This document shows positions 8,136 to 41,684 of a stretch of 64,000 nucleotides of DNA, in pieces (the stretch's first letter is position 1; every line of letters starts with the position of its first letter). The DNA comes from Magnetococcales bacterium. Its GTDB lineage: Bacteria; Pseudomonadota; Alphaproteobacteria; UBA2136. The DNA lies in the NCBI GenBank assembly GCA_002689455.1, contig NZGE01000033.1:16926-80925 (forward strand), in the 5' to 3' direction. The notes beneath the pieces are model-generated. The model did not search any database. It saw nothing but the letters and a program-made list of their open reading frames with translations, and was not told the DNA's origin. A program made the translations under genes and the position numbers.

Positions 8136-8151
8136 TTTTTATTCCTCAAAC

Positions 8152-22919: not shown

Positions 22920-22944
22920 TTTTATATTACCTTTTACTAATATA

Positions 22945-24011: not shown

Positions 24012-24347
24012 TTATAGGACTTCAGTAGATGCTGTTGCATTACCGTCTGTTGCATCAGCAAAACCAGAACGCATCCATTCGAAGATACCTGGGAAAGCTG
24101 TTACAGCTACACCACCAATCATCACCATGATACCCCAAGATGATTGTTGGATAAGCCACATGTACAGACCAAATAGTGCAATACCTAAACCGATAAGCGT
24201 ACCTAAACTACCTGAAACCATGCCAAGCACACTTGCAAGTAAATCACCACCTGCAGCTGTAGCATCCTGCGCCATTGCCGCTTCCGGTGCCATTGTTAGA
24301 ACTACTGCTAAAACAGCAAAGCTCATAAAAGTTAGAAATTTTTTCAT
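24012..24347 (-). CDS. traA: F-type propilin TraA
   Basis: 111 aa. The leader ends ...APEAAMA. The mature N-terminus QDATAAGGDLLASVLG parallels F-pilin AGSSGQDLMASG, followed by two hydrophobic helices. Confidence 0.7.
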   Translation of the reverse strand: MKKFLTFMSFAVLAVVLTMAPEAAMAQDATAAGGDLLASVLGMVSGSLGTLIGLGIALFGLYMWLIQQSSWGIMVMIGGVAVTAFPGIFEWMRSGFADATDGNATASTEVL

Positions 24348-24514: not shown

Positions 24515-26233
24515 TTACTTGTCGGTAATCACAAACAATCGGCCATTATCAAAACGTCTAAACGTTAAGTCAGCACCGTGTGTTTGTTTTACCTTTTCTT
24601 GCACATAGGCAAGAAACTCATCAAACCTTGCTTCTGCAATCACTGTCCATTTATCATTTGGCAGTGAAGCATTCTTTTTAGATAGTCTCCATTCAACATT
24701 CCAGTCGCCAATACGGTCTGAAAGTTGTTTTAAGGTTGTTTTCATAATGCTATCAAGCGTTTCATCTTCAGCTTTTAAAACAACGTTATTTTCTTCCATT
24801 GGATGCGTTGGGGCGTCTATCATTGTAACATCACCCTCTGAAACCTTTGGCACTTCAAGGGCGGCCAAACGTTCTTCAAGCATCATAATGCGCTTTTTAT
24901 ATTGTTCCGCTGGGACTTCAAACTTGCGTAAGTTATCAAATGCTGGAACAACAATTTTTTCACCCGCATCAATTTGCATTGCACGTGCCATCACGTTTGC
25001 AGCGTCCACACTTAAACGATTCGCTTCACGTTCCATAGCTTCACGCTTTGAAAGCCTCGCAGCCGATGCGATGGCCTCTGCCTCTGCAATTTTTTTCGCT
25101 GCTTCTAAAATCATCTTTTGTCTTGTAGCACTTGCACCTATTTCAGCTTTTGCTAAATCTTGGCGTAAAGCATCCATTTGCTGTTTATGTGCTTCGTTCT
25201 TTTCAAAAGTGCGGCGTTTAATGTCATTTGCAATTTGTTCATACTCAAGTGCACGCTGTTCTTTTTGAGCAATAACCTGCGCCGCTTTACGCTGAACCAG
25301 CTCTTTATCGCGTTTTTCAGCAACCAAATTACGGTAATTATTTTCCACTTCTTCACGCAAGCGTCGCTCTTTTTCTTTTTGGTATTCAATAACCTTTTCA
25401 GCACCACGCAGTTGAATCAGCAATTCTCGGATCTGATTTTGATGTTCTTTTAAAAGTTCGTCTGAACTTTGGCGAGAAAGATTACGCACCCCCGCCAACA
25501 ACTTTTCAGCCTCTAGAACAATTTCTTGATGCGCTTGATCTTCTTTCCAGCGATTAATTGTTCCTGATAATTCAGCATCGGAAACTTGACCTGCAACACG
25601 TGAGCCTTGTTCTGTTAATTGAGTCGGTTCAAAACGTTCATCATATTGACGATTCTTCACCTTATAAGGTTCTTTAGTGTGTGCAGGTACAACACCACCT
25701 TCATATTCAATTGTCATACGTTCGGCGCCTGTGTATGGTGCCATGGCTGCATCTTCTGGTGTTTCGTTTGGAACTTGCGTTAGATCAATAATATCATTAA
25801 TCGCAATGCTCATATAGTCATCTTTTTCAGGAAGCTTTCCGTATTTGTCGATAAATGCAATATTCACATTCGGGTCGGCGGCACGTTGATGAACTTTCAT
25901 TTGACCATTAAAAAGTGTTTTTGAATGGTTACATGGTTCACCATCGCGGTCATACAGGTATTTTTTATCACCTGTAATAGCATCCATTTGAACACCAAAG
26001 CCTTTACCTTCTGAACAGTCGGATGTTGAAAGGTCAGCTGCTTTTGCGTTTGTAACACCTACAAGTTTACCATCTAAAACAACCGCACCTTGGTCCACCA
26101 AAGGGTTTTCCATAGGTGCTGGTTTTAATAACTCACGTTCACCGGTAACCAAAACACCATCAGATGCACAAGATGCTAAAAACAATCCTGCACTTAAAAC
26201 TAAAGATGATGTTGCGTAAATATTATATTTCAT
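24515..26233 (-). CDS. Coiled-coil lipoprotein with a C-terminal TcpQ-like module
   Basis: 572 aa with a lipobox (LFLASC). A central K/E/R-rich coiled coil of about 200 aa. The C-terminus IGDWNVEWRL...LTFRRFDNGRLFVITDK is shared with two other proteins. Confidence 0.5.
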   Translation of the reverse strand: MKYNIYATSSLVLSAGLFLASCASDGVLVTGERELLKPAPMENPLVDQGAVVLDGKLVGVTNAKAADLSTSDCSEGKGFGVQMDAITGDKKYLYDRDGEPCNHSKTLFNGQMKVHQRAADPNVNIAFIDKYGKLPEKDDYMSIAINDIIDLTQVPNETPEDAAMAPYTGAERMTIEYEGGVVPAHTKEPYKVKNRQYDERFEPTQLTEQGSRVAGQVSDAELSGTINRWKEDQAHQEIVLEAEKLLAGVRNLSRQSSDELLKEHQNQIRELLIQLRGAEKVIEYQKEKERRLREEVENNYRNLVAEKRDKELVQRKAAQVIAQKEQRALEYEQIANDIKRRTFEKNEAHKQQMDALRQDLAKAEIGASATRQKMILEAAKKIAEAEAIASAARLSKREAMEREANRLSVDAANVMARAMQIDAGEKIVVPAFDNLRKFEVPAEQYKKRIMMLEERLAALEVPKVSEGDVTMIDAPTHPMEENNVVLKAEDETLDSIMKTTLKQLSDRIGDWNVEWRLSKKNASLPNDKWTVIAEARFDEFLAYVQEKVKQTHGADLTFRRFDNGRLFVITDK

Positions 26234-28119
26234 TAATCAGTCACCACTAATATACGTTCTTTTCTGAAGATATTGAATGTTAAACCAAACCCTCGGTAAC
26301 TTTTCATATAGTTTGAAAGATAACTTGTGAAGGCGTCAAAGTCTGTTTCAACGTCCAGTGAAAAACGTTCATCTAAAACATCCATATGCTCTGGCTTCAA
26401 TTTCCATTTAACATCCCAGTCACCCACATACGGCTGAGCACGTGTTAGAAGTTCATCCATGATATCTTCAAGTTTGTCATTATTAATATGCATAACAACC
26501 TGATAATCCTCTAGGTCAATCCAGTCTTCTTGTGGGTAACCACCAAGCACACCACCTTTATCAGCAGCTGTCATTTCGATATTTGAAGTACGTGCCGTTG
26601 TTTCAATGACACGTCCAAGTTTCAAGTCTTCACTGTCAATTGATTCTTGCTTAACAGGCTTGCCTTTTTGGCTTTCCATGGCAAAGATACGCTGTTCTAT
26701 AGCATCTCTGTATGAAGCCGCTTCTTCCATGGCAATATCTTGCTGTTGCTTTAGCTCTTCAATCGTTTTTTGAAGTGATTCTTTTTGCTCCTCAAGGGCT
26801 GTAATCGTTGTTACATCCACTTCAGCCAGCTTTTCTTCTAAAGCATTTTTGTCATCTTCTAAGTTTGCAAGTTTCTCTTTATAAACTTTACTATCTTCAG
26901 CTGATTTTTCTTGTGTTGCATTTAGCTTTTCAATTTTATCTTCAAGCAAGCTTCTGTTTTTTTGAATTTCTTGAACTGACTTTTCATTTAAAGATGCAAG
27001 CTTATTATTCAACTCAGCTTTTTCTTTTTCAAGCTGTTTGAACTTCATATCATAAACATCTTTTACAGAAGCTAAGCGAACTTCTAAACTTTCTTTCATA
27101 GCTTGTGCGCGTACATCCGCTTCCGACATGCGACGTGCTTCTTGCATCTCTATAATATCAAGTTCTTTCTTCAAACTTGCAATTTTAAACTCAAGCTCAG
27201 CTTGACGTTTTGCACGTTCAATATTTGCACGTTCGCCAGCCAGTTTTTCACGTTCAGCCTGTTGCATCACTAAACTAAGTTGTTCACGGCGGTCTTGTTC
27301 CAGTGACTTGCGCATTTCAAGTTCTTCAAGCAAGCGCATTTCACGTGCTTCTTCCATGGCTTGTTTACGAGCAACCGCTAAACGGTTTTGAACATCTTGT
27401 TCGTATTCAACACTTTTCAAACCTTCTGATAAAACTTCGGTAAAGTTTTCAACTTCGTTGAATTTTTTATCCAACGCACGAATAAGAACATCTTTTTCAG
27501 CTTTAATTTTAGAAAGCTCTTCTAAAGCCATACGAATTTCTTGCTGGTGTGCTTTATTTTGAAAATCATCTTTTTTATTCAGTTGTTCGAGGCGATCTTC
27601 TACAGCGACGAATTTATCATCGAGAACAGCGAGCAATGCATCTTTCTCGCTAATTTGTTGCGCTTCAGATGCTTTTAAGAATGAAATATTTTTATCAATT
27701 GTATCGAATTTCGATTTTACAAGCGCCATCAACTCAGCGTCTTGTGCGGCTTTACGCATTTCTTCACGACGCATTTGTGCGACACGTTGCTCCACCTCTT
27801 GGAATTTGCTGAGCATTTTTTGTTCTTGCCCTGTGTGAAGCTGAATAAATTCTCCTTGAAGTTTTGAAAGTTGTTCACGTATTACATCTACATCACGCTT
27901 TGGCATTTCCCATGAAGGGTCATATGTACGTTTCATAATAATACCGCCTTGCGAGATTGTTTCCATCTTCAAAGGCGTTTCCTGTGCCACGCGTTGGTCA
28001 AGAACTGGTTGTGGTGCACCTGTGTGTGAATTGTACGCACCTTGACAGCCAGCTAAAGCCAAAATTGTGGCGAAAATACCCATTTTTTGTTTTTGTCTGG
28101 ACACCATTTTTACGGACAA
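26233..28119 (-). CDS. Coiled-coil lipoprotein with a C-terminal TcpQ-like module (paralogous architecture to the 24515..26233 lipoprotein)
   Basis: 628 aa with a lipobox (ILALAGC). A very long central coiled coil. The C-terminus VGDWDVKWKL...LTFNIFRKERILVVTD. The stop overlaps the next start. Confidence 0.5.
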   Translation of the reverse strand: MSVKMVSRQKQKMGIFATILALAGCQGAYNSHTGAPQPVLDQRVAQETPLKMETISQGGIIMKRTYDPSWEMPKRDVDVIREQLSKLQGEFIQLHTGQEQKMLSKFQEVEQRVAQMRREEMRKAAQDAELMALVKSKFDTIDKNISFLKASEAQQISEKDALLAVLDDKFVAVEDRLEQLNKKDDFQNKAHQQEIRMALEELSKIKAEKDVLIRALDKKFNEVENFTEVLSEGLKSVEYEQDVQNRLAVARKQAMEEAREMRLLEELEMRKSLEQDRREQLSLVMQQAEREKLAGERANIERAKRQAELEFKIASLKKELDIIEMQEARRMSEADVRAQAMKESLEVRLASVKDVYDMKFKQLEKEKAELNNKLASLNEKSVQEIQKNRSLLEDKIEKLNATQEKSAEDSKVYKEKLANLEDDKNALEEKLAEVDVTTITALEEQKESLQKTIEELKQQQDIAMEEAASYRDAIEQRIFAMESQKGKPVKQESIDSEDLKLGRVIETTARTSNIEMTAADKGGVLGGYPQEDWIDLEDYQVVMHINNDKLEDIMDELLTRAQPYVGDWDVKWKLKPEHMDVLDERFSLDVETDFDAFTSYLSNYMKSYRGFGLTFNIFRKERILVVTD

Positions 28120-28185
28120 CCCTATTTTGGTTACACTTTTTAACCCACATAAACCTTAAAAGAAGGGGATGTCTATGGCAAACAA

Positions 28186-28659
28186 TTAGCGCCATAACAG
28201 ATAGATAAGAGGCGATATCATGATGGAAAAAAGCAACACTTTTTTGGCAAGCATACGAGATTCCACCCATAAACCCACAATAAAAAGCCAGCAAATAACC
28301 CATGTAAGCGTGAAAACAAGCACCAATTGAGGTCCTGTAATTATATAAGCAATTGCGCATATAAATATGGTGCAGAGCTCTATGAACATATACCTTGGCG
28401 AAACTGGCACTTTGCAATAGTGACATTTACCTTTAAAAATCAAGTACGAAAGAACGGGTAACAAGTCTATAGATTTTAATTTTTCATGACATGAAGGGCA
28501 ATAGCTAGGCGGGTTAGATAACGATATACCTAAAGGCACTCTATAAAGCATACAAGTTAAAAATGAACCGAAAACACCACCAATCACCACAACCAAACAC
28601 CACAAAAGCCATGGAGCTTCTTGATGAATAATGAACAATACCTGATTAACCTGATCCAT
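28186..28659 (-). pseudogene. Prepilin peptidase (A24 family)-like gene, truncated or frameshifted
   Basis: 157 aa. Retains the N-terminal tetra-Cys Zn module (CPSCHEK...CHYCK) and the first transmembrane helices. It ends before the region carrying the second catalytic Asp. An overlapping ORF in another frame (27998..28426) continues the hydrophobic sequence. Confidence 0.45.
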
Positions 28660-28664
28660 AAATG

Positions 28665-29744
28665 CTATTTACCGCAAGGGTCTTCATCCACGGTGATACG
28701 TGGTGGTAATTTACGGTCAGCTATTGTGCTTGCTGCCGGACCACAAGTGCCTGTAGATGGGTCGATTCGCGCCAAAGGGTTAGAATAATAGAAGAAACCT
28801 TCTTCTTGCCTTTCGCCACTGTTGTCTATGAATGTGCGCATTGCATTACAACAAAATTCAGCAGGAATACCTAGCACACGTGTCAAGGCAATCATACTAT
28901 TACGGCGATCCTCTTTGTCATTCACGTTTGCATCATCATTTATAACAACATCTGTCGTGCCAACGCCTAACAAGTCATCAAGTTCAGCTTCAATTTCACT
29001 TGTAACACCGCTATAACTAATATTAAGCATACTGGCATCAGAAATAGGACCAGAAGAAGGTGGAAAGAATATAAGGGTTTGGCTTACACCATCGGCTATA
29101 CCTTCGTAACGCTTTAACTGGCCATACTCCACTAAAGCTTCTGTAATGCGCTTTAAACGCTCGGCTGTTTTTTTATAACGCGCCATTTGCAGGTCACGGT
29201 CGGTAAATTTAATTAAAAAATCACCTTCTGGTACATCAATGTCTTTAAACTTCGTATCGTACTGAAGTGGGTTTGTGCCCAATAAATTGGTAACACTTGT
29301 GCTAATCGTACTTGAAACACATGACAAACCATTTCCCCAACATCCATCTACGCCCGTACTATACAAAACAGCGTAATGCACATCAAACGTTGCATCGCGA
29401 AAAACTTCTTGTCCAACAACCCCGCGGTAATGCCGATTGTTATAAAAAGCATCTTCACGAATTTCGCGCTCTAAATAATCACTGTATTCTTGTGTTTCAC
29501 TCGCAAAAGCAGTGATACTGTTGGTCACAGGAATGCGGAACTCTTGTTGTGCCATAAAACTTAACACACGGTTCATTTCTGTTTGAATTTCCTCTTCTTC
29601 TTTTTCATTTTGTAACATTAAAAAATCAGAAACCATTGGAAAAGTTGAAACAATTAAAATTGAGATAACTGCACCTGCAATAATAACATCAAACAGTGTA
29701 AAGCCTTTTTTGTTAAATAAATTTTGCATAACCATTACCCGCAA
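28665..29744 (-). CDS. Large minor pilin / pseudopilin (class III signal, Asp at +5)
   Basis: 359 aa. N-terminus MRVMVMQNLFNKKG|FTLFDVIIAGAVISILIV. C-terminal CC...C...RKLPPRITVDEDPCGK is paralogous to the next gene. Confidence 0.6.
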   Translation of the reverse strand: MRVMVMQNLFNKKGFTLFDVIIAGAVISILIVSTFPMVSDFLMLQNEKEEEEIQTEMNRVLSFMAQQEFRIPVTNSITAFASETQEYSDYLEREIREDAFYNNRHYRGVVGQEVFRDATFDVHYAVLYSTGVDGCWGNGLSCVSSTISTSVTNLLGTNPLQYDTKFKDIDVPEGDFLIKFTDRDLQMARYKKTAERLKRITEALVEYGQLKRYEGIADGVSQTLIFFPPSSGPISDASMLNISYSGVTSEIEAELDDLLGVGTTDVVINDDANVNDKEDRRNSMIALTRVLGIPAEFCCNAMRTFIDNSGERQEEGFFYYSNPLARIDPSTGTCGPAASTIADRKLPPRITVDEDPCGK

Positions 29745-30694
29745 CTATCGTCAGTTACACGAATACGTGGAGGAAGCTTACGGTCTGTTGAGCCTGGCCT
29801 TGTACCACACCCAGCACCTTGCCTTGGCATTGGATTGGAATAGTAAAAGAATGGTGTTTCATTCACATCCAAAGCTGAACAACAATAATTATCAGGCAAC
29901 CCTAAAAACCTCATCAGAATAATCATATCTGTTCGGCGCTGTACATCATCTGCTGGGTCCGCACTTAAAACGTAGTTTGCAGAACCTGCAATGGTATCCA
30001 AATCACCCGTCACAGCCGTAGAATAGTTTGCTGTATCAGGGTCAGCCAATGCCGTGTCATCTGTTGGAGGGTAATATATAAATTCTTCTGGGTTTGCAGG
30101 AACACCTGCCACGACTGCTTCGTTAAAGCGCGTTGTGGCATAACTGGCAAGGGCAGATGAAATATCCTTTAACCTCTGCTCCGTCAGCTCATAATTTTTA
30201 ATTTGCTGTTTATAGTTTGTGTATTTCACCATATAATCACCAAATTCAGGTTGCAAGGTTGCATAAGCAGTGACCGTTGTAAGAGAAGCCGGTAAATTAA
30301 CAGCAACACCTGAACTGCCAAGACCTCTTTCAATACCGTGGCCGTAAACAACAGCATAGTCGACAACCACACTCGCCGAACGATATGTCACTGTTTCTGA
30401 AATAACATGGTAAGCACGTGCCTGTTCCCATTGGTCAAATTCAATGGCATTTTCACTCAATGATGCATAAGGAGCCAAGTCACTTACCCATGTTGCAGCA
30501 GGTGGCAATGAATTGTTTTCATCGGCATAGGCCTCTAATGCACGTTTAATTTCAGACATTGCACTTTCTTCCATTGTCTCTTCTTGCATTTGGAAGAATT
30601 GAACAAAGTTTGGGAAAGCCATGACTGTAACAGCGGCTAACACTGCGGTGACAATAATCGCTTCAACAATTGTAAAACCTTTATTCTTAAACAT
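29735..30694 (-). CDS. Large minor pilin / pseudopilin (canonical G|FTIVE signal)
   Basis: 319 aa. N-terminus MFKNKG|FTIVEAIIVTAVLAAV. C-terminal YCC...C...RKLPPRIRVTDDSCG. Confidence 0.65.
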   Translation of the reverse strand: MFKNKGFTIVEAIIVTAVLAAVTVMAFPNFVQFFQMQEETMEESAMSEIKRALEAYADENNSLPPAATWVSDLAPYASLSENAIEFDQWEQARAYHVISETVTYRSASVVVDYAVVYGHGIERGLGSSGVAVNLPASLTTVTAYATLQPEFGDYMVKYTNYKQQIKNYELTEQRLKDISSALASYATTRFNEAVVAGVPANPEEFIYYPPTDDTALADPDTANYSTAVTGDLDTIAGSANYVLSADPADDVQRRTDMIILMRFLGLPDNYCCSALDVNETPFFYYSNPMPRQGAGCGTRPGSTDRKLPPRIRVTDDSCG

Positions 30695-30709
30695 CTCTCT
30701 CCTTCAAAA

Positions 30710-31804
30710 TTACAGGCCGCTAATAATATCGGAACCTTCTAACCTTTTTGCATATTCAATTGTCCACTGGGAAGCCGCATCCTCCGTAATCACAAAATCC
30801 ATACGGTCCAAATAGCCACCACCCGTGCTGCCCACTGTTAAGTCAAGTTGATCAAGCATTCCAGGAATCATTCTGTCATATTCTGCGTCAATCCCCAAAT
30901 ATTCCATCATTTCCGTATTGGTATCTGTGGTGTTTGGGTACATCACAGGAAAACCTGCACGCCCTGTTAAATTACCACCTGTTACGCCAGGCACGTTACA
31001 AGAATCATCTTTCCATGCGTGAATTAAGGCTGTACCGCAACTTGGCGCAGGGTCGTCCCCAATCCAGTTAAAACTTGAATCATAAAAATTCACAACGTCA
31101 TAATAGTCGGTTTGAATGGTTGGGGTGAATAGGTCATATTGTTGTTTATAGTTATCTGAAACAGCTGAAAGCATTTTATCGAATGTTTCTTTTGTGTGGT
31201 TCCACATATCTTGCGCAGTGCTAATGGTTGTGAACACATGTACAATATCATCTTCACCATCAGCGTTTGTTGGTTTTTCAAAGCGACGCATTTGGTTAAA
31301 TGTGTTCCCAGGGTTTGGTGTTCCAAACCTACGGTCTGGCCCTGCACTGTAAAGCATGAAAACAGCAACAGGTGCTTCTACTTCATTGTTATAACCAGGG
31401 GGTGTATCAGGGTCGGAATCGGCATATATAGTAACAGACCTATAATTCATTTCTAAAATATAGGGTACGCCCCACGGGTCAATGAGCAATTGATCATTTG
31501 CGTAAGACACATAGCGCGGAATAAAGTTATCAAGACGTCTTGCATTTGCAGCGCCGATTGTTGCATCAATTGCGTAACGTGTACCAGCAACACCACTACC
31601 TGGTGTAATACCTAATCCAATAAAATCAGGATTATCTCCTAAATAGCCTTTTTTAACGCCGATCTCAATTTCTTGAAAAAGCTCTTGAACAAATTCAATG
31701 CGCTCTATTTTCTTTTGCATGGCTGATGTTGATAACATGGTGGTAATGACAGCAACTGTCGAGTATAAAATGCCAAATAATGCTAATATAAATATGGACT
31801 GCAT
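30710..31804 (-). CDS. Membrane-anchored protein with an N-terminal pilin-like hydrophobic helix but no prepilin cleavage motif
   Basis: 364 aa. MQSIFILALFGILYSTVAVITTML with no Gly-(F/M)-T-x-x-E site. Cys pair near the C-terminus. Confidence 0.4.
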   Translation of the reverse strand: MQSIFILALFGILYSTVAVITTMLSTSAMQKKIERIEFVQELFQEIEIGVKKGYLGDNPDFIGLGITPGSGVAGTRYAIDATIGAANARRLDNFIPRYVSYANDQLLIDPWGVPYILEMNYRSVTIYADSDPDTPPGYNNEVEAPVAVFMLYSAGPDRRFGTPNPGNTFNQMRRFEKPTNADGEDDIVHVFTTISTAQDMWNHTKETFDKMLSAVSDNYKQQYDLFTPTIQTDYYDVVNFYDSSFNWIGDDPAPSCGTALIHAWKDDSCNVPGVTGGNLTGRAGFPVMYPNTTDTNTEMMEYLGIDAEYDRMIPGMLDQLDLTVGSTGGGYLDRMDFVITEDAASQWTIEYAKRLEGSDIISGL

Positions 31805-31847
31805 ATATATCCCCTACGTCAAAACCCTTGTATACTTATGTGGTTGA

Positions 31848-32486
31848 CTAAAAGTTTTGAGTTTTAAACTTAATGACATGCTTTTTACCCTGCTCATCTA
31901 AAAAATGAACGGCACCGTCATCAACCTTTTCCAATTTAAGGCTTAAGTTTTTAACCATTTGAATTTTTTCTTGCACTTGGTTTTCAACCACCTCAGCCAA
32001 GCTTTGGTCAAGTTTCTTTAAACCTTCCACCAGAACAATTAAGTTTTCTTTAGCGGCAACAGGTACGTCTAAAGCAGAGCCTTCCTCATACCATCTATTT
32101 TTAATGAGTGCCGATTTAACACCATCAATTGACATAACAGCGTCTACTTCTAACGTGCTTAAATCTGCATTAAAAATTTCTTCTTTGCTTAAAACAGATC
32201 GAATTTCATTTAAAACATCCGCTGCACGCAGTGCACGCAATTGATCCGCTGAGAGTTCTTTTGGTTTTTCAACACGAACAACACGCTGTTTAACTGGCTT
32301 TGGACGCTCTGTCACTTTAAATGGTGTGTTTTCACCCGCATAAGCAGGCAAACGTTCTAATTTTTTCAAATCTGTTTCAACACGCCATTCCAATTGTTCT
32401 TTAGCGGCATAGCTTTCACGCACAAACAAAATTGAAATGAATGAAAATACAATAAAGGTCAAAGAAATTTTACTTGTGTAAAGCAT
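31848..32486 (-). CDS. Periplasmic or bitopic pilus-assembly accessory protein
   Basis: 212 aa. N-terminal signal or transmembrane segment (ISLTFIVFSFISILFV). The start overlaps the upstream gene by 17 nt. Confidence 0.35.
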   Translation of the reverse strand: MLYTSKISLTFIVFSFISILFVRESYAAKEQLEWRVETDLKKLERLPAYAGENTPFKVTERPKPVKQRVVRVEKPKELSADQLRALRAADVLNEIRSVLSKEEIFNADLSTLEVDAVMSIDGVKSALIKNRWYEEGSALDVPVAAKENLIVLVEGLKKLDQSLAEVVENQVQEKIQMVKNLSLKLEKVDDGAVHFLDEQGKKHVIKFKTQNF

Positions 32487-32970: not shown

Positions 32971-34079
32971 TTAACCTGAACCCCCAATTTTACAATTCCG
33001 CCTGTACCAACTGGTTTTTCAATATATTTCAACCATGGTGTCGACTCAATCACTGTTTTTGCAATACGCTCCTGGTCAAGCAATAAGCTGCTTTCTGGGA
33101 AGTTAACACGTACATTAATATCCATCACACCACCTGTCACAAAACGAACAGGACCACGACCTCTTTTACCTGAAGATGACGCACCAATCTGAATGGACCG
33201 AACCTCTCCCAATTGAGCAGCAGCAACACCAGCACCATGTAAAAGGGTGGACGGTGGTAATGGCACTGTTTCATCCATAACCCTTAAAACATCCTTCGGG
33301 TTAGTAATATGCCCTAAAACTTTATTCTTTTGCATGATGCGAATCGCATTTTTTAAATCATCGGACTTTGCTTGCAAAGACTGAAACTCTAACTGTGTTG
33401 TCACCCACAAGAAAACAACCCAACCAAGCGCAATAAAGGCACAAAGAGACATTGTTAACATAAGGAAACTTTTATCTTTACGAGAAAATAAAGGTTTAAT
33501 GTTTTTGCGAGGCTTACCTAAAGACTCAAACGTCACAACTTCTTGTTCAAATGGTTCGAGCGATTCTTTATATTGGCTAAGTGCATCTTCGTCGTTATGA
33601 ACCGCAACAACAATTTTTTCTTCTTTACCTTCAAGCATACGCTCAGATATTGAAGAAATAACAGAAGGCAATGCTTCTTCTTCTGATGAACTGATGAGAG
33701 ATGTACCCCAAACTTTATGACCGTCGTCGGTCACAGTTCGCACACCATGAATAACAAATTTACCACCAAAAACGTAATAAAAAGCACCTACATCTTCTTT
33801 CACAAAGTCTTGTGGTAGATACATATTATGTGTTTGGCGTTTTTCATCTAGGTCAAAGGAAATGTTTCCATAAACATAAACATACGGACCATCTTGACGC
33901 CACAGAGCCGGTAAATCATCCGAATCACCATGACGTTCTTTTACACTGGCATCTGTTGGGGCTGTAATATCACCATATTTTTTAATGCGAGAATATTTAG
34001 GTATGAGAATACTGCAGACAGCGCCCTTTTCGCCATCGTTGTAAATAACGCGATCGTCTGAAAACAGTAATAAACTCAC
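32967..34079 (-). CDS. Bitopic inner-membrane assembly protein (GspL/PilM-N/BfpC-like): cytoplasmic domain, one TM, periplasmic domain
   Basis: 370 aa. About 205-aa cytoplasmic N-terminus, a transmembrane segment (FLMLTMSLCAFIALGWVVFLWV), and about 145 aa periplasmic. ATGA overlaps on both sides. Confidence 0.4.
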   Translation of the reverse strand: MSLLLFSDDRVIYNDGEKGAVCSILIPKYSRIKKYGDITAPTDASVKERHGDSDDLPALWRQDGPYVYVYGNISFDLDEKRQTHNMYLPQDFVKEDVGAFYYVFGGKFVIHGVRTVTDDGHKVWGTSLISSSEEEALPSVISSISERMLEGKEEKIVVAVHNDEDALSQYKESLEPFEQEVVTFESLGKPRKNIKPLFSRKDKSFLMLTMSLCAFIALGWVVFLWVTTQLEFQSLQAKSDDLKNAIRIMQKNKVLGHITNPKDVLRVMDETVPLPPSTLLHGAGVAAAQLGEVRSIQIGASSSGKRGRGPVRFVTGGVMDINVRVNFPESSLLLDQERIAKTVIESTPWLKYIEKPVGTGGIVKLGVQVK

Positions 34080-35161
34080 GAGTACTCCATTAAAGCAATC
34101 ATTGGTGCCACTAGGCTTGTGTACATACTAATAATAAAGAATGGTAACAAACCCGCCATTACAACCATCATCAGTAAACTTGTTGCTTTTTTTGTAATAC
34201 GTTCAAATTCACTGGCATATGGTACTTTTAAGTCTTCCACACGCTCGGCAATTTTACCAGTTTTTTCACCTGCCTCTACCGCACTTCTAAAAGATCCTCT
34301 AAAGGGCAGTGCTGCCAATGCATCACCTAGCTTTGCACCGTGGTCGTGCTCATAAGCGGCACGCTTAAGAGATTGGCACACCATTGTATTGTTCAATGAA
34401 AGTGCAAGGGTATTTAAAACGGATGGTAAAGGCATATTAGCACGTACTAATGCAGGCATAAAGTAAACAACCATCACCGCATTATAAGAAAGAATAATAC
34501 GGCGGATAGGCGTAATTCCCATTAATGTTTTCTCAATGTAGAAAGCAACTGTCTTCGTATTTCTTGTAAAGAATATAATAACTGGTGCCATTGCAAATAT
34601 AATTGGAATAATATAATTCGCACGCAGCCAAACAGACCCGTACCAGTAAAAACGAATAATAAGCGGGAACTTTGCAATCACACTATCGTCACGCTGAAGC
34701 ACAGGTTCCATCACAACAGGAAGCATAAAAATCATAACCCCTAAAGACATTAAAATAAGCATGAAACCACCTACAACAGGCATCATCATTTTACCTTTTA
34801 ACGCCTTAGTGGAGCTTTGGCGCATGGTCATCGCTTCCACCAATGAAGGCACTGCTATTCGAAGCTGGTTACTTTGTTCAGCAGCACGCACAATGGAAAT
34901 TTCTTGTTCTGTAAAGCCTAAACCAGTGGCTTTTAAAGCGTCCGCAAACAACACCTGACCCGAGTTGAAGTCACGCACTACACGTTCCATTTTAGCACGT
35001 AAGGTTTTATATTCATCACGTGAATACACATCACATGTGTTGGCAATGGCTTCATTTACAGGAAAGGCGCCACCACCTGATGTAAGCCATGAAGCCAGCG
35101 TACGGAAAAACTCAATACGTGTGGTTAGGTCTAGCTCGGTTATACCAAATTCAATACCCAT
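34076..35161 (-). CDS. Pilus/T2SS inner-membrane platform protein (GspF/PilC/TcpE/BfpE family)
   Basis: 361 aa. About 170-aa cytoplasmic N-domain followed by three transmembrane segments with a large loop. Lies immediately downstream of the ATPase. Confidence 0.65.
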   Translation of the reverse strand: MGIEFGITELDLTTRIEFFRTLASWLTSGGGAFPVNEAIANTCDVYSRDEYKTLRAKMERVVRDFNSGQVLFADALKATGLGFTEQEISIVRAAEQSNQLRIAVPSLVEAMTMRQSSTKALKGKMMMPVVGGFMLILMSLGVMIFMLPVVMEPVLQRDDSVIAKFPLIIRFYWYGSVWLRANYIIPIIFAMAPVIIFFTRNTKTVAFYIEKTLMGITPIRRIILSYNAVMVVYFMPALVRANMPLPSVLNTLALSLNNTMVCQSLKRAAYEHDHGAKLGDALAALPFRGSFRSAVEAGEKTGKIAERVEDLKVPYASEFERITKKATSLLMMVVMAGLLPFFIISMYTSLVAPMIALMEYS

Positions 35162-37827
35162 TAAATATCACCTGACAATTCTTGTACTTTAGCGGCTAGC
35201 TCATGCACATCGGTAATACCGTTTTTCATATGTAATACACCCATATAACCCATCGGCTTCCAACCTGCACGTCTTGCAACGTCCTCTAATTCTGTATAAT
35301 TACGTTCCACAGAAATGTTCACCAACTCTTTATTTGGTGACAACCATTCAGCAATCGCAATACGCCCATGGTAACCCGTGTAGTTACAACTTGCACAGCC
35401 GTTTGGATCATGTGTAAACAGCTTTGAACCTTCGGAGCTTACCTCAAATTTATTGAATACATAGTTTGTATATTCATCAATTTCGCTCACGGGTTGTTTA
35501 CAGTGTGTGCATAAACGACGAATCAACCTTTGTGCTGCAATACCACGCACATACGAAATGTTAAACCCATAAATATCTAATTCATCCAAACGAATAATCG
35601 CATCTAAAGATGTGTTGGTGTGCAATGTACTAAACACAAGGTGACCTGTGTTGGCAGCTTCAAACACCAAACCAGCCATCTCAGCATCACGCACCTCACC
35701 AAACACAATAACATCAGGGTCGGCACGGAGAGATGATTTCAGCAATTGTAAACCACTACGCATCTCATCGGCTTCCGCAATCTCCATCTGTACAGCATAA
35801 CCTGCCACACGTTTCTCAGGTGGATCTTCAATAGTATGTACACTTAAACCACGCCCCATTGGGTTTGCACTCACAATCGCCGAGTGGATACTTTCCGTTT
35901 TACCTGAACCTGTTGGCCCCGTCCAAAGGATAACACCGTTGGATGACTTTGCAGCTTCCCTTACATACTGAATGAAGTACTCAGGGTAACCCAATTGTTC
36001 CATAGCCATCACGTCTGGGTTTAAACGACGAATAACAATTCGCGGTAAAGGCCCTTGACGACCAGCATGTGGCTGAATTTGAATACGCCAGTCATAACCA
36101 CTACGTGTAAACGCACCTTTGTTCGGGTGGTGCAAGTCTACTTTTGGCATACGTGCAATGTTTTCAATACGAATTTTAAGACGTGTGAGCTGGTCAAGGG
36201 TAATAACCTCTTTCGACTGCACAAAACCATCCACACGGTAGCGAACCATCGCTTTAAAGTCACCTTTAATAGAAGGGTCAATGTGAATATCCGAAGAACG
36301 GGCATCAATTGCGTTACCAATAATACGGTCAAGCAGTGCATCCGCTTCCATGTTACTGTCAACGTCTTCATCTTCACCTGAAAGCCAAAAGGCACCACAA
36401 ACATCACGCAGTGCAAAGTGCCATACAAATTTATGGTCTGGTAAATATTCTGAAATTGCAGCTTCAAGAACGAGGTTTTTCGTTGGCGCTTCATGGGCCA
36501 AGTGTAATTCACTCAAACTTTTAGAATCATCTTCTGAAGCAACTTTATGCCAAAGTGGAATAGCACGTGCTTCACGCAGTAACGCACACACACGGCTGTC
36601 AAGTGACTGTCTTAAGCCCATTGCCTCATGCGGAATGTTTAAGAAAGATGTTATTTCTTTACGCTTTTGCGTACGTGCAATAGCTCTAGAAAGTTGTACA
36701 GGTGTAATAATTTTTTGCACAACAAGGTCGCGACAAATAAGCTGTGGTAGCTTTTTAAGTTTTAAGGCCTGACCAACACGCGCTTTTGCTGTTGCATCCA
36801 CACTTAAATCATCCGCCTCATACAAAACACGCAGAACGTTACTGTAAAGGTCGTCTACACCCAAAGAAATTGTTTCTTTAAAGAACTTCGCCTCAAGCTC
36901 ATCTTCTGTCATATTTTGTGCAAAACTACCTGATGAAAGGTCTGGCAGTTCTTCCATTCCCATATCAACGTCATCATCATCTGATGCGATGTCAAGGTCT
37001 AAGCTCTCAAAACCTGCACTACTGGCTTCTACGCTGCCAGTTTCAACTTCCATTTCAGGTGCACTTAATGGTGCTCCAAAATCATCTTCAGCAAGCTCTT
37101 CAACTTCATCCGCCATTTCCAATTCAGGAAGGTCATTCTCGCCCTCATCATCTGCAACTTCAAGCTCTACACTCTCCGCACCAGTATCTTGGTTAGAATT
37201 TTCGGTGGTAGGCTCTGCAGCAACAACTTCTGCGGCTGGTTCAATTTCATCCACATCGACATCCAGGTCAAAGTCTACATCCAAATCAGGTGCAGCTGCT
37301 TCATCTAAAGATGGTACAGGTTCATCTAAAACACTCTCTGATGCCAAATCCACTGGCAATGGGAATGGGTTCGGCGCTTGCTGTTTCACAGGGTCAAATT
37401 TTGGATTTGCAATAATTTGAACCTCTTTTCTTACAGGTTCGGCTGTAGGTTCTTCATCATCGAAGTCCACATTAAAATCGGTATCTGATTCACTTTCATC
37501 ATCTTCTGACAAATCAAAACGAACATCTTCATGTTCAACTTCTAAAGAAGTATCCGCCAAAGCATCGTCATCACCTTCTTCGCCTGCAAAACTGTTATCA
37601 AAGTCGGGTAAATCTAAATCGTCAGATAAAGAGTTTGAATGCGCGCCATATTCTTCTTCTGCAAGTGAAAGCGGTTCATCAACATCTGAACTTTGCTGAG
37701 TGTTATAGGTTTCATCCGTAGACTGATCATCATCTAAATCATCAAAAGAAGTGATGTTTTCATTTTTAACATCACCTTCAGGCTTTTCAACCAATTTCTT
37801 TTCATCTGTTTTTGAGTGATCGCTCAC
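35161..37827 (-). CDS. GspE/PilB-family secretion ATPase with a roughly 300-aa polyacidic N-terminal extension
   Basis: 888 aa. Walker A GPTGSGKT, Asp box, Walker B DPDVIVFGEVRD, His box GHLVFSTLHTN and a tetra-Cys CTHC...CASC. The N-terminal roughly 300 aa is D/E-rich low complexity. Confidence 0.85.
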   Translation of the reverse strand: MSDHSKTDEKKLVEKPEGDVKNENITSFDDLDDDQSTDETYNTQQSSDVDEPLSLAEEEYGAHSNSLSDDLDLPDFDNSFAGEEGDDDALADTSLEVEHEDVRFDLSEDDESESDTDFNVDFDDEEPTAEPVRKEVQIIANPKFDPVKQQAPNPFPLPVDLASESVLDEPVPSLDEAAAPDLDVDFDLDVDVDEIEPAAEVVAAEPTTENSNQDTGAESVELEVADDEGENDLPELEMADEVEELAEDDFGAPLSAPEMEVETGSVEASSAGFESLDLDIASDDDDVDMGMEELPDLSSGSFAQNMTEDELEAKFFKETISLGVDDLYSNVLRVLYEADDLSVDATAKARVGQALKLKKLPQLICRDLVVQKIITPVQLSRAIARTQKRKEITSFLNIPHEAMGLRQSLDSRVCALLREARAIPLWHKVASEDDSKSLSELHLAHEAPTKNLVLEAAISEYLPDHKFVWHFALRDVCGAFWLSGEDEDVDSNMEADALLDRIIGNAIDARSSDIHIDPSIKGDFKAMVRYRVDGFVQSKEVITLDQLTRLKIRIENIARMPKVDLHHPNKGAFTRSGYDWRIQIQPHAGRQGPLPRIVIRRLNPDVMAMEQLGYPEYFIQYVREAAKSSNGVILWTGPTGSGKTESIHSAIVSANPMGRGLSVHTIEDPPEKRVAGYAVQMEIAEADEMRSGLQLLKSSLRADPDVIVFGEVRDAEMAGLVFEAANTGHLVFSTLHTNTSLDAIIRLDELDIYGFNISYVRGIAAQRLIRRLCTHCKQPVSEIDEYTNYVFNKFEVSSEGSKLFTHDPNGCASCNYTGYHGRIAIAEWLSPNKELVNISVERNYTELEDVARRAGWKPMGYMGVLHMKNGITDVHELAAKVQELSGDI

Positions 37828-37938
37828 GTTTCCCCCTCACCTATTTTATTATTGTTAGGCGTTTTGCATTTAAAGTTTTTTAACTTTTTAAAATTCATGT
37901 CAGCTTTGTGACAGGAATTTTAAAATTTTAATAAAGAA

Positions 37939-37978
37939 CCCCCCCACTCCGCAGCAAAAGCGGCGCGGAGGGGTTTTT
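37939..37978. terminator. GC-rich hairpin between the major pilin gene and the ATPase gene (attenuator-like)
   Basis: ccccactccgc-agcaaaag-cggcgcggagggg, with T-runs on both strands. Confidence 0.4.
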
Positions 37979-37990
37979 AAACCAACCTAA

Positions 37991-38599
37991 TTAGTTAAGT
38001 AGGTTTGCACAGTATGTCATATCTTGGATATCTGTTACCAAGTCAGTGTACTGAACACGACCAGCTGATTCATCAATCTCACCATCGATTGTTTCATCAG
38101 CGTTTGTAATTTCAGTTAATGGCACATCTTCCATTGTAATGATTAGGTGTGTTTTACCATCATCACATGTACCTGTCTGTTGTGAAATAACACCACCAGA
38201 ACCAAATTGGTGAGAAACTTGTTCACCGTTTGAAGATACGTCAAAACCAGATAGAAGAGGCTTCCAACGTTCGTTGTACTGGTTTGTACCAGATACAGAA
38301 TCTTGAGCAGCCAATACAGCGATGTAGTGTTCACCTGATGGTGTACCAATTACACCAGCATCATCTACAGCAATGTGAGGCCATACACCTTGACGTGCAT
38401 AGAAACCACCGTTAGATTCTTCAATCTGCTTAAGGTAAGAAGCCAACTTTGTACCAGATGTACGGTTTAGAAGGTCCCAACCCACAGAAGCAATAATCAA
38501 TGTAATCAATACAGCAATTACCGCTACGATCAAGATGGTTTGGTCAATCGTGTAACCAGCCGCCTTTTTCATGTAGTTATTTAAACTTGTTTTTTTCAT
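37991..38599 (-). CDS. Type IVb-like major pilin (15-aa leader, G|YTIDQ)
   Basis: 202 aa. Leader MKKTSLNNYMKKAAG, then a 20-aa hydrophobic helix YTIDQTILIVAVIAVLITLII. C-terminal Cys pair (about 50 aa apart) for a D-region disulfide. Confidence 0.6.
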   Translation of the reverse strand: MKKTSLNNYMKKAAGYTIDQTILIVAVIAVLITLIIASVGWDLLNRTSGTKLASYLKQIEESNGGFYARQGVWPHIAVDDAGVIGTPSGEHYIAVLAAQDSVSGTNQYNERWKPLLSGFDVSSNGEQVSHQFGSGGVISQQTGTCDDGKTHLIITMEDVPLTEITNADETIDGEIDESAGRVQYTDLVTDIQDMTYCANLLN

Positions 38600-38670
38600 T
38601 TTCCTTTTTCTCCCACTAAGTCGAAATTTTATTATTGTTTCTTATGGTTTTCACCATTAACTTTTACCTG

Positions 38671-40497
38671 TTAGTACAGCCTTTTCACCTGCAATAACAC
38701 GATAAACTCTACGTTTTCGTAACTAATGTCCTCATCGTTTAATAGCTTACCTGCCATAGGGATGTTACGCATTAGTGGCACGCCTGATTCCTTATCAATT
38801 GCAATCGTACGTGTTAAACCACCAATAACTTTCACTTCCCCATCTCTAATTCTTACCTTCTGGTCAATCACACGTGTGGTGACAACCGGAACTTCAGAAC
38901 CTGAACCGTCTGGAACTGTTACAAAACGGTCAATCTCTGTCATTGGAACCTGTACACTTAATGTATGAGGCTCACCTTCATCTGCGACTTGTGCTGTGAC
39001 AGCAAACTGAATACCCACAAATTGTGTTTTTTCTTCCGCTGTTGTATCTGTAATAGTTCCCGAGTCTGTTGTTTCTCGCTCTGTTGTGACAAGGAAATAC
39101 TTTTCATTACGGCCATCGACCATAACAGCCATCTGACGGTCCATAACTTCCATCATAGGCTGCATAAGCTGATAAGTTGTGCCAAAGCTTTCTGCAAATG
39201 ATACAGCAGCTCGTAAATCACCACCAGTATAATTAAACAAGCCATTGTTCGTTCCATCTACAGCTGAAGGGTCAGATGAAAGTAAAGATGAAATAGCACT
39301 TACAATACTTACGTTTTCACCTTCAAAGCCTGCAGTATAAGTATCACCTTCGTTACGTGAAACTGCTGTATATGCACCTTGTCTAAACCCATGGTTTTTA
39401 GAAACCGCCAATACACGAGCTTCAACCATCAATCGGCGGCTTGCAATATCTTTCACATGACGAATAATTTCGTCAGCTGAATTTAAAACAGTGTACGGTG
39501 CGCGCATTTGAACCATACCAATAGTTCGGTTAATGCGCACATACCCACATTCAAAAGAACCACTATTAGAACTTGCAGCAGGAGCACCACCTTCACCTGC
39601 CGGCAAGAGAGAAGCTACATCCGCTACATTATTTTGCATTTCTTCACATGATTTTTCAACCAAAGCACTCAAATCTTCTTCCAAATCATCCCACAAGTTA
39701 CGATTGTTAGAAACTGTAATACTTCCCTGCCCACCAGATGATGAGTTACCAGAATCGCTTTCTCCGCTAAAGGAAGATGCGTAAGTTACACTTTGATTTT
39801 GTTGCCTTTCAGGCTCTTGAAGGTCAAGAATCCACTGTCTTTGAGGGAACCCACCAATTGTGTAGTGTGTTCCATTGTTCACCAAAGACATACCGTGCGG
39901 TGTTAGCACCGCATCAAAGGCATCTAAACATGTAATATCTTTAAAGGATGTTGTTACAAGTGTTGTTGCAAGCTGCTGCTTGTTTTCTGTAATCACCATA
40001 TTGTAATCACACAATTTCGCCAAACCACGTACCACCTGTGAAAGGCTAACGTTTAAACCTGGAGAAAAGGAGTCGATACGCTTTTCATCTAAAGAAGGAA
40101 GCACTAATATACGACGCTCACCTTCACGAACAATCTGCACACCGTACACATCTTCAACATAGTTTCTTGCTTCATCAAAAGTTAATTCATTAATAACAAT
40201 GCTTTTTGTTGTTTCTTGACGAACATCATCACTGTAGCGCACAGCCAAGTTGTAAACATGCGCCATACGTGAAAGCAACGAACTTAAAGCGTAAGTACCT
40301 TGCGCTTTAAAAGTTGCATTTGCCTGCATTTGACGCTTAGAAACAGGCTCACCCACACCAATAACTGCGGAGCCAGATTCTTTATAGTCTTTAAAACCTT
40401 CTGCTGGAGAGTTGTTTTGGAGGTATGAAGCATCACTACATGCTACCAAACCTGCTGTTGCACCTGCCAGTAAAAGATTTGTAAACAGTTTATTCAT
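38671..40497 (-). CDS. Lipoprotein secretin (TcpC/BfpB/R64-PilN-like)
   Basis: 608 aa. Lipobox LLLAGATAGLVAC. C-terminal secretin domain ending ...GVPLMRNIPMAGKLL...FIVLLQVKRLY. Confidence 0.75.
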   Translation of the reverse strand: MNKLFTNLLLAGATAGLVACSDASYLQNNSPAEGFKDYKESGSAVIGVGEPVSKRQMQANATFKAQGTYALSSLLSRMAHVYNLAVRYSDDVRQETTKSIVINELTFDEARNYVEDVYGVQIVREGERRILVLPSLDEKRIDSFSPGLNVSLSQVVRGLAKLCDYNMVITENKQQLATTLVTTSFKDITCLDAFDAVLTPHGMSLVNNGTHYTIGGFPQRQWILDLQEPERQQNQSVTYASSFSGESDSGNSSSGGQGSITVSNNRNLWDDLEEDLSALVEKSCEEMQNNVADVASLLPAGEGGAPAASSNSGSFECGYVRINRTIGMVQMRAPYTVLNSADEIIRHVKDIASRRLMVEARVLAVSKNHGFRQGAYTAVSRNEGDTYTAGFEGENVSIVSAISSLLSSDPSAVDGTNNGLFNYTGGDLRAAVSFAESFGTTYQLMQPMMEVMDRQMAVMVDGRNEKYFLVTTERETTDSGTITDTTAEEKTQFVGIQFAVTAQVADEGEPHTLSVQVPMTEIDRFVTVPDGSGSEVPVVTTRVIDQKVRIRDGEVKVIGGLTRTIAIDKESGVPLMRNIPMAGKLLNDEDISYENVEFIVLLQVKRLY

Positions 40498-41684
40498 TAT
40501 TGACCAACTCCTTCAAATCCGAAGCGGTTATTGTGTGTTACCACAATTAGTTTACCACCTGGGAAAATTTCATATTTAAGGTTAAACAGTCTCAACAATC
40601 TCTCTAAAGCAATTGCAAATGGCTCTTCAATGTGTGCTGGTTTTAGAACTTGGTCCAAACCTGCGTACACACGCAATCTCCATTCACCTTTACCTGCTTG
40701 GTTTACAATGTTTTCTAGTGCGTCTACCAATGGCACTTCATCATAGTGCAAGGAAACCATTGTTTCTTTTAATACGTTTTCAGTAACAGCTACTTCATCT
40801 AAGTCACCCACACCGACTGAAGATGTCATACCTGATAGACGGTGCCCACCTGTGCGGTCTGTAATTACAAGGCGTTGTGTGTTGTCGTAACGAATCACAC
40901 GAAGTGGCTGACCACTACGTGTTTGAATACGTGCCACAAGTGCGTTTAAAACATTCATAAACGGCTCTTCAGTGTAGATAGAAATTTCCATTTCAGGAAG
41001 CGCTGCGTTTTGTTCAGCCATATCCCATACAACTGTCCACTCACCGCCACCAATTTGGTCCATCATACGCTGAATGGCACGGCGCACGCTGATGCGGTCT
41101 TCACGCAAGCGCACAAGAGAATTTGTCATATCAAGGGTGCGTTGCTGAACAGTACCTTGAGCAATTTCCACACCTTCACCACTACGCACCATTTGCGGTG
41201 ATGTCATTTGTGTGCCAGAACCCATTTCGTAACCTTGTTCCATGCCATTATAAGCGTTTTGAACAGCGCCTTGGCTTGAAGCCACACGGTTCAAGTCACT
41301 TTCGTAACCTACATGGCCGTTTGAAATTCTGTTTAATTCACGTTCGAATGAATCTGCTGAATTGTATGCTTGTGCAACCGAGTAAGAACCTTCAGGGAAA
41401 TCTGAAGTGTAGCTATCTGCTCCGGCTTTTTGGAAGTTCATAAGTTCAGCTTCTGTTTTAAGACGGTGCTGGGCATGACTTGGGACAAACACGCCACGTG
41501 AATCGTCTGCATAGTCAGGGGCTTGAGCCACTGTCATTGGAGGAACATAACCAGGAACTGGTTGCGCTAAACTCTCGTTATACGCTGTCGCGCCTAACAA
41601 AGAAATTGCCAAAAACATCTTAAAAGATGTGACATTTACATAATTTTTCAATACATTCTTCTTATACATAGTTCTTATCACCAA
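40497..41684 (-). CDS. Secreted protein with tandem TcpQ-like domains (pilotin/PilL-TcpQ-class secretin partner)
   Basis: 395 aa with a signal peptide. Two C-terminal repeats (GGGEWTVVWDM...LRVIRYDNTQRLVITDR and GKGEWRLRVYA...FPGGKLIVVTHN). They match the C-termini of the two coiled-coil lipoproteins. The stop overlaps the secretin start. Confidence 0.45.
   Translation of the reverse strand: MVIRTMYKKNVLKNYVNVTSFKMFLAISLLGATAYNESLAQPVPGYVPPMTVAQAPDYADDSRGVFVPSHAQHRLKTEAELMNFQKAGADSYTSDFPEGSYSVAQAYNSADSFERELNRISNGHVGYESDLNRVASSQGAVQNAYNGMEQGYEMGSGTQMTSPQMVRSGEGVEIAQGTVQQRTLDMTNSLVRLREDRISVRRAIQRMMDQIGGGEWTVVWDMAEQNAALPEMEISIYTEEPFMNVLNALVARIQTRSGQPLRVIRYDNTQRLVITDRTGGHRLSGMTSSVGVGDLDEVAVTENVLKETMVSLHYDEVPLVDALENIVNQAGKGEWRLRVYAGLDQVLKPAHIEEPFAIALERLLRLFNLKYEIFPGGKLIVVTHNNRFGFEGVGQ

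Follow-up and report, generated by a model that had tools for sequence, protein, structure and literature searches.

The window analysed here, a 64,000-nt stretch of DNA from an uncultured marine alphaproteobacterium (all coordinates are window positions), contains a type IV pilus gene cluster followed by genes for an F-like type IV secretion system (T4SS). A module of ~95 amino acids (aa) is common to three of its proteins, all encoded on the minus strand: a 572-aa lipoprotein (LP572; 24515..26233), a 628-aa lipoprotein (LP628; 26233..28119), and a 395-aa periplasmic protein encoded next to the pilus secretin (40497..41684), which has two copies. Judged by their sequences, the three proteins are paralogues carrying a genuine common domain. 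This domain forms a remote branch of its own within the TcpQ/BfpG N0-like superfamily, and is neither an unrelated domain nor TcpQ proper. As to function, we lean, by no great amount, towards a reading in which the two lipoproteins are PilL-like, outer-membrane-anchored accessories of the secretin complex, with the 395-aa protein as the equivalent of BfpG/TcpQ.

The module occupies residues 479-572 of LP572 (24518..24799), residues 536-628 of LP628 (26236..26514), and residues ~190-277 (copy 1; 40854..41117) and ~300-385 (copy 2; 40530..40787) of the 395-aa protein, again all on the minus strand. Each copy features the same succession of short motifs: GDWNVEWRL...LTFRRF...LFVITD in LP572, GDWDVKWKL...LTFNIF...ILVVTD in LP628, GEWTVVWDM...LRVIRY...LVITD in copy 1, and GEWRLRVY...LKYEIF...LIVVTH in copy 2. 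The C-termini of LP572 and LP628 can be aligned over 93 aa with 30% identity (BLASTP E=1e-14), and the LP572 module aligns with residues 200-277 of the 395-aa protein, that is, with copy 1 (E=1e-9). Copy 2 is weak by BLASTP (E=0.003 to 0.014). Hidden Markov models (HMMs) built from the C-terminus of one family match the others at 1e-17 to 1e-26 (1e-24 to 1e-26 for the LP628 module) and copy 1 at ~1e-13. With hhalign, a profile of the lipoprotein modules matches copy 1 with a probability of 98.5% (E=1.7e-15) and copy 2 with a probability of 95.9% (E=6.4e-9); the two copies match each other with E=4e-5. All four share one core in a multiple alignment, with a single invariant Trp; copy 2 has diverged and its second helix is shorter. 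An earlier reading of the DNA letters (the original prediction) had noticed the recurring motif in the three proteins, in tandem in the 395-aa protein, and these comparisons confirm it: the pairwise similarity of the C-termini is far beyond chance, and on the BLASTP, HMM and hhalign E-values we reject a compositional artefact.

An AlphaFold model of the LP572 module, calculated from a 24-sequence alignment, has a pLDDT of 90.5 and the order strand-helix-strand-strand-helix-strand-strand. In fold comparisons the model scored up to 9.3 with phage/pyocin hub domains, 8.6 with the N0 domain of EscC, 8.3 with BfpG (81 of 88 residues), 7.8 with the N0 domain of PilQ, 7.2 with DotD and 5.9 with Xanthomonas VirB7. 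Foldseek placed DotD first and BfpG second, each with a probability of 0.99 and weak E-values. The module is thus predicted to have the N0-like fold seen in the BfpG structure. N0-like lipoproteins also occur in T4SS outer-membrane complexes, DotD and Xanthomonas VirB7 being examples.

TcpQ (PF10671) is the sole Pfam family that recurs among the relatives of these proteins. It is matched by 51 of 67 members of the 395-aa family at E<=0.1 (best E=4.5e-6) and by 11 of 99 members of the lipoprotein family at E<=0.05 (best E=1.4e-4); DotD (PF16816) is matched by none of the three window proteins and none of 166 family members scanned. In the window itself, the 395-aa protein reaches 18 bits (E=0.003, residues 206-276) against a TcpQ gathering score of 27 bits, and neither lipoprotein is matched at E<=0.1; as controls, the same profile gave 75 bits for BfpG and 58 bits for R64 PilL. 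Aligned to BfpG by hhalign, the full module is covered, with the WxVxW motif and the terminal VxxVT strand in register (E ~9e-4, probability 23-24%), and its match to R64 PilL is not significant (E=0.16). NCBIfam yielded no PilL, TcpQ or other informative match for the three window proteins. Profiles of the module, of the 395-aa family and of the 572-type N-terminal domain, run against PDB sequences, gave matches at chance level only: kinesin, designed proteins and polyubiquitin, the last inflated by its repeats. The label 'TcpQ-like' used in the original prediction is therefore apt for a distant sister family with an N0 fold, but does not extend to membership, as all window proteins fall below the TcpQ gathering score.

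The module profile was searched against 1.84 billion representatives at E<=0.001, with clusters defined at 50% identity. The family comprises at least 213 clusters, 208 of them at E<=1e-10, and because of this sharp edge we consider it well bounded. Current domain libraries hold no annotation for it. Among 146 representatives analysed for architecture, almost all single-module proteins end with the module or carry only a few residues after it, and the 395-type matches have two copies, the best-scoring one internal. The locus tags of several module-family proteins coincide with those of 395-family members.

The 395-aa protein (~390 aa in homologues) was defined from its open reading frame (ORF), translation and homologues. 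It has a Sec-type signal without a lipobox, then a conserved N-terminal motif, PVPGYVPP...YADDxRG, and the two tandem modules. More than 179 homologues were found, and their alignment is very conserved. Its stop codon overlaps the start of the gene for the secretin, a 608-aa lipoprotein with the lipobox LVAC (38671..40497, minus strand; Pfam Secretin 1e-20, with STN and Secretin_N_2; NCBIfam MshL 8.6e-34), and the overlap is conserved in relatives (loci L027-L029). The secretin begins with a conserved segment of ~45 aa preceding N0, followed by N0/STN-like domains and the MshL-like secretin domain. The pre-N0 segment, SY.Q.NSP..FK.Y...AAV.G.G.P.S.RQM.A.AT, is conserved in four divergent orthologues. 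Because the secretin is a lipoprotein, has this conserved pre-N0 segment and is translationally coupled to the 395-aa protein, we assign the latter, with fair confidence and by analogy, the role of BfpG/TcpQ; its gene occupies the position of BfpG/TcpQ/PilL. The predicted location directly upstream of a lipoprotein secretin, as for BfpG with BfpB, was thus correct. A gene adjoining that of a lipoprotein secretin of a type IV pilus operon, on its upstream side, is typical of TcpQ proteins; the 395-aa protein has this arrangement but LP572 and LP628 do not, their genes coming 10 genes further downstream, where the operon ends. A pilotin role was set aside since the secretin is itself a lipoprotein.

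As the structure of BfpB bound to BfpG shows, the N0-like BfpG binds the LG domain of the lipoprotein secretin in a 17:17 arrangement, pairing a strand with the stretch that runs from the lipidated cysteine to N0 (PMC12531336). This hoop of BfpG promotes multimerisation of the secretin, and TcpQ is a homologue of BfpG (PMC12531336). By analogy, the 395-aa protein probably strand-pairs with the ~45-residue segment between the lipid anchor and N0 of its secretin, and would hoop the periplasmic rings of the channel.

LP572 has the lipobox LASC, a two-cysteine N-terminal domain, a long helix and the C-terminal module; the start of its gene overlaps the stop codon of LP628. The N-terminal domain (residues ~45-135; 25829..26101, minus strand), delineated from alignments, contains the invariant cysteines C73 and C101 and an RAADP motif. 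It is present in 41 of the 146 representatives and has no match in Pfam or the PDB. The helix (residues 233-422; 24968..25537, minus strand) was predicted by AlphaFold with a pLDDT of ~80-94. Its most conserved motif is AA(K/Q)KIAEAE (residues 378-386). Across 42 orthologues with 26-35% identity, the segment from W229 to I382 measures 153 residues in most (SD 3.2), and the linkers flanking it differ by tens of residues. The outliers include segments of 146 and 160 residues, one heptad shorter and one heptad longer, which suggests that length is conserved in heptad quanta. A straight helix of 153 residues would span ~23 nm. This pattern is our strongest hint that the LP572 stalk may have a distance-setting, ruler-like role. 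A lipobox was recognised in 36 of 40 representatives of the 572-type; most are 475-582 aa long, and four measure 717-882 aa owing to an extra Pro-rich N-terminal region.

The 628-type behaves differently. LP628 consists of the lipobox LAGC, a long, helical and charged stalk (residues ~75-500) and the C-terminal module; its 628 aa are counted from a TTG start, and database homologues begin at M5 or M13, which would give 624 or 616 aa. The products of the gene at this fixed position measure 189, 219, 224, 438, 469 and 558 residues, the longest reaching 934 or 1090. Representatives are bimodal (171-256 aa or 356-1028 aa), and a lipobox is recognisable in about two-thirds of them. The short forms comprise lipobox, linker and module only, with no helical stalk. 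Clearly, the 628-type stalk is not a fixed spacer; it is dispensable and its length is free. The original idea of a spacer placing a secretin-binding domain at a set distance therefore fits the 572-type, with its nearly invariant helix length, and fails for the 628-type, with its range from 171 to 1090 aa.

Both long proteins had been described as coiled-coil lipoproteins. The second half of this description is borne out by the conserved lipoboxes. The first half needs qualification: LP572 has one long predicted helix and both proteins have heptad patches, but the periodicity is interrupted by charged stretches. In LP572 periodicity at 3.5 residues reaches significance only at residues ~240-300 (z up to 3.4), and in LP628 only at residues ~170-240 and 365-400 (z up to 4.5). 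In the family-average profile z is 1.3 for the whole; conserved hydrophobic positions keep a 3-4 spacing in some segments, interrupted by long charged gaps. Self-BLAST of the two stalks revealed no internal repeats.

Scans of genomes and metagenomes with the 572-type alignment yielded 21 loci, and contig look-ups added three more (L002-L004). All 21 loci are from uncultured Alphaproteobacteria, on contigs of up to 1.8 Mb. The metagenome scan contributed only five additional loci, all with the same synteny, which do not separate linkage to the pilus from linkage to the T4SS. The conserved order is ATPase, T2SSF, o370, pilins, an A24_N-only protein, 628-type, 572-type, T4SS pilin(s), TraL, TraE, TraK, a UvrD-like helicase, o716 and o582, and it is kept even where the lipoproteins are only 26-30% identical to those of the window. 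In almost every locus the genes of the 628-type and 572-type proteins adjoin or overlap each other, as do those for the 395-aa protein and the secretin. The pair sits at the junction of the pilus operon and the VirB2/TrbC-like pilin gene, the traA of the original prediction, which had placed it correctly. The module family is apparently tied to this one syntenic supercluster in uncultured Alphaproteobacteria.

How might the lipoproteins work? In the reading we prefer, the single C-terminal module of each would dock on the rings that the secretin and the 395-aa protein would make up together, and the lipid anchor would fix the other end in the outer membrane. We infer the binding of the module to the secretin by analogy with BfpG. 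The length-fixed helix of the 572-type, lying between its module and the two-cysteine domain near the anchor, would serve as a strut of set length (~23 nm if straight); the stalk of the 628-type would be dispensable and free to vary in length. We place the lipoproteins in the pilus secretin complex because the nearest relative of their module is copy 1 in the 395-aa protein, because the module's sequence affinity is to TcpQ and not to DotD, and because R64 PilL provides a precedent. The genomic context adds three arguments. First, the gap between the pair and the A24_N gene is 13-146 bp, tighter than the gap of 60-646 bp between the pair and the T4SS pilin gene. Second, the T4SS already owns a candidate outer-membrane lipoprotein, since a 134-aa lipoprotein with the lipobox LTGC (7731..8135, minus strand; assigned from its translation and its neighbours, which match F-type TraB and F-type TraC) occupies the TraV position. 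Third, at one locus (L010, positions 4483-9190) the pair keeps its place beside the pilus genes, and the genes after it are dksA-like, pip (proline iminopeptidase)-like and mnmG instead of T4SS genes.

Several observations weigh against this assignment. In sequence the module falls short of the curated thresholds for similarity to bona fide TcpQ, BfpG and PilL, and the protein that tops the Foldseek comparison, DotD, is a T4SS lipoprotein. A two-module partner for the secretin exists already, and the pre-N0 segment appears to have room for one binding region only. In ~20 of 21 loci the T4SS pilin gene comes directly downstream of the pair; context fails to separate the pilus from the T4SS, as nearly all loci have both machines, and L010 is a single 10.7-kb contig from a metagenome-assembled genome (MAG) that could be misassembled. 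As to the stalks, residues 1-217 of LP572 are without a model (pLDDT <50 in the N-terminal domain), the heptad periodicity of both helices is patchy with charged ER/K-like stretches in between, and the length range of the 628-type speaks against a precise structural role of its stalk. Separately, we noted at L010 a TraF-like thioredoxin gene on the opposite strand; this locus may be a rearranged cluster or a misassembly.

Some of these observations would be expected if the lipoproteins belonged to the T4SS, resembling DotD and Xanthomonas VirB7 and adding an N0 ring to the TraV/TraK/TraB outer-membrane core. We consider this, the main rival, possible but doubtful. The short 628-type proteins (171-256 aa) are built like DotD and VirB7, to which the module is also matched in fold; the genes are immediately upstream of those for the T4SS pilin, TraL, TraE and TraK in ~20 loci; and a promoter-like but no terminator-like site is found between LP572 and the pilin gene. 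Such a placement sits poorly, however, with the recurrence of TcpQ and the lack of any Pfam DotD match in the 166 family members, and with the fact that the module's closest relative in sequence is copy 1 of the secretin-coupled 395-aa protein. The lipoprotein already in the TraV position, the tighter spacing on the pilus side and the pair at L010, which remains with pilus genes and has no T4SS genes after it, also argue against it.

It is unlikely, in our view, that the lipoproteins join the two machines, with the 572-type helix (153 residues, ~23 nm) serving as a periplasmic ruler between the pilus secretin complex and the F-like T4SS core. One end, or one of the two paralogues, would engage the former and the other the latter, which would bring pilus and conjugation channel to the same site. 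The junction position is invariant across very divergent loci, the two coupled paralogues differ in their N-terminal parts, the length of the 572-type helix is conserved and quantised, and N0 domains dock in secretins and T4SS complexes alike (PMC12531336). On the other hand, gene order alone is equally explained by operon history, L010 breaks the junction, and a variable 628-type stalk is ill-suited to a fixed bridge. If true, this arrangement would constitute one joint envelope assembly, and the supercluster would be a vertically inherited core machine of a small-genome alphaproteobacterial clade rather than an ordinary mobile element. We give very little credence to a third possibility, that the stalks are rapidly evolving helical shafts of lipid-anchored surface fibres or adhesins and not parts of a periplasmic machine: the length and sequence of the 628-type stalk vary extremely, which diversifying or relaxed selection would lead one to expect, and one orthologue has a weak match to a bacterial collagen middle region, but what is conserved, at the C-terminus, is an N0 docking domain of periplasmic type, the short orthologues lack a shaft altogether, the 572-type is constrained in length, and no adhesin or autotransporter domains were found.

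Returning to accessories of the pilus secretin as the favoured role, the surroundings of the three genes are as follows. From 24.0 to 41.7 kb every gene is read from the minus strand, and transcription passes from the 395-aa protein and the secretin to a 202-aa pilin-like protein, an 888-aa GspE/PilB-type ATPase and a T2SSF platform protein, then to several bitopic and pilin-like proteins (N_methyl/GFT..E-type signals), a 157-aa A24_N-only protein, LP628 and LP572. After a gap of 167 bp, the F-like transfer block begins with a VirB2/TrbC-like T4SS pilin (111 aa; 24012..24347, minus strand; Pfam TrbC E=1.5e-4) and continues with TraL and TraE, both matched in Pfam, and the TraK-position gene, an order that is kept in relatives; further along are F-type TraB, the TraV-position lipoprotein and F-type TraC. 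NCBIfam returned no informative match for TraK/E/L, the T4SS pilin or the A24_N protein of the window. A gene for a coupling protein (45940-47361) lies upstream. On its flanks the cluster has housekeeping genes, leuS among them, and for this reason we regard the window as chromosomal. Its closest database proteins are from marine MAGs labelled by NCBI as 'Magnetococcales bacterium' or 'Alphaproteobacteria bacterium', and megablast of the whole region against plasmids gave no match.

The A24_N-only protein (28186..28659, minus strand; Pfam A24_N_bact 5.8e-26, without a catalytic domain) is encoded by the final gene of the pilus operon ahead of LP628. A gene of this kind, encoding 110-190 aa, is the last pilus gene at the same place in all related loci (L002-L025). 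No catalytic Peptidase_A24 domain was found among the window ORFs that were scanned. We rejected a frameshifted prepilin peptidase at 27998-28659, as every relative retains the short A24_N-only gene and no domain is present in the overlapping ORF of 142 aa. The pilus ATPase (35161-37827, minus strand) has an N-terminal extension of ~490 aa ahead of its T2SSE domain, and its orthologues total 592-1007 aa. A Gln-rich lipoprotein of 315 aa (lipobox VTGC; 44613-45560, minus strand) is encoded upstream of the pilus genes; like the TraV-position lipoprotein, it is without the module.

On the T4SS side, the TraK-position protein (22200-23105, minus strand) has no Pfam or NCBIfam match and is by far the best conserved of the cluster, with phmmer E-values of 1e-89 to 1e-148 over ~240 aa in loci whose lipoproteins share only ~27% identity. 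A UvrD/PcrA-like helicase (20342-22060, minus strand) is inserted between the TraK-position gene and the remaining T4SS genes, beside a 716-aa protein with weak sigma-70/ParB-like matches (18055-20205, minus strand). Both are kept there in the great majority of loci that reach this far, and they may be part of a DNA-processing machinery. Taken as a whole, a block of ~45 kb (window ~600-48750) is syntenic in more than 20 MAG loci (L005-L029) and contains the thioredoxin-like TraF, the coupling protein, the pilus machine, the two lipoproteins, the F-like T4SS, the UvrD-like helicase, and the 716-aa and 582-aa proteins. There are no tRNA genes in the window and no integrase among the window ORFs scanned. 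The supercluster may be a vertically inherited core system and not a typical integrative and conjugative element.

The relatives with which these proteins are best compared fall into four groups. To our knowledge, lipoprotein-secretin partners are known only from a handful of enteric pathogens and plasmids, and the structure of BfpB with BfpG, from 2025, is reportedly the first of such a pair at high resolution. With BfpG, TcpQ, CofC and LngC, the module shares the WxVxW and hydrophobic-x-V-(I/V)-T motifs in register, and the 395-aa protein shares a gene position immediately upstream of a lipoprotein secretin and a Sec signal without a lipobox. It differs in being three times longer and having two modules, and the channel domain of its secretin is nearer MshL than PilN or BfpB. 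LP572 and LP628 differ further: they are lipoproteins of ~570-630 aa, they have long helices, and their genes lie 12 kb away from that of the secretin.

A precedent for the lipoproteins is PilL, known from the IncI1 plasmid R64 and from pil operons of genomic islands. PilL of R64 is a lipoprotein in which a long N-terminal region precedes a TcpQ domain at the C-terminus (residues 264-350 of 355, E=1.3e-15), and it likewise belongs to a type IV pilus encoded beside a conjugative T4SS. Its spacer, however, is Pro/Ser/Thr-rich and not helical, its gene is upstream of the secretin, and there is one PilL per system compared with three paralogues here. In sequence, neither the module profile (E=0.16 by hhalign) nor NCBIfam, which found no PilL match in the window proteins, joins the two. 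By eye, R64 PilL (L026, 39592-40659) has a possible second N0-like segment at residues ~105-185 (GWKF...VSW...LTVT), and a tandem arrangement as in the 395-aa protein may already be present in it. DotD of Legionella Dot/Icm (TraH in R64) and Xanthomonas VirB7 combine a lipobox, a linker and a C-terminal N0-like domain, as the short 628-type proteins in particular do, and are also encoded beside T4SS genes. The differences are that no DotD signal is found here, whereas R64 TraH gives 1.2e-17, and that the T4SS of the window is F-like (TraL/E/K/B/V/C) and not of the type IVB or Xanthomonas type. We know of no long helical stalks in DotD or VirB7. Finally, the N0/STN domains of secretins and the baseplate-hub domains of phages and type VI secretion systems are parts of channel or hub proteins, unlike the module, which is C-terminal on accessory proteins; no relation of the module to either was found at the level of sequence.

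The lipoproteins had been proposed as a novel accessory architecture. In kind they are not, as R64 PilL already combines lipoprotein, spacer and C-terminal TcpQ domain. The fold, the logic of a lipoprotein secretin and its partner, and the PilL design are all known, and so is the combination, as in R64, of a type IV pilus and a conjugative T4SS. New are the subfamily, the two-module periplasmic partner, the helical stalks, one length-invariant and one hypervariable, and the supercluster of pilus and F-like T4SS conserved in the lineage. The N0-type partner domain is multiplied within one system, in three genes and four copies, and in an uncultured alphaproteobacterial lineage it has been placed on lipid-anchored helical stalks. 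The fixed 572-type helix and the neighbouring 628-type stalk, which ranges from none to ~900 residues, offer a natural contrast for asking whether helical lipoproteins set periplasmic distances around secretion channels.

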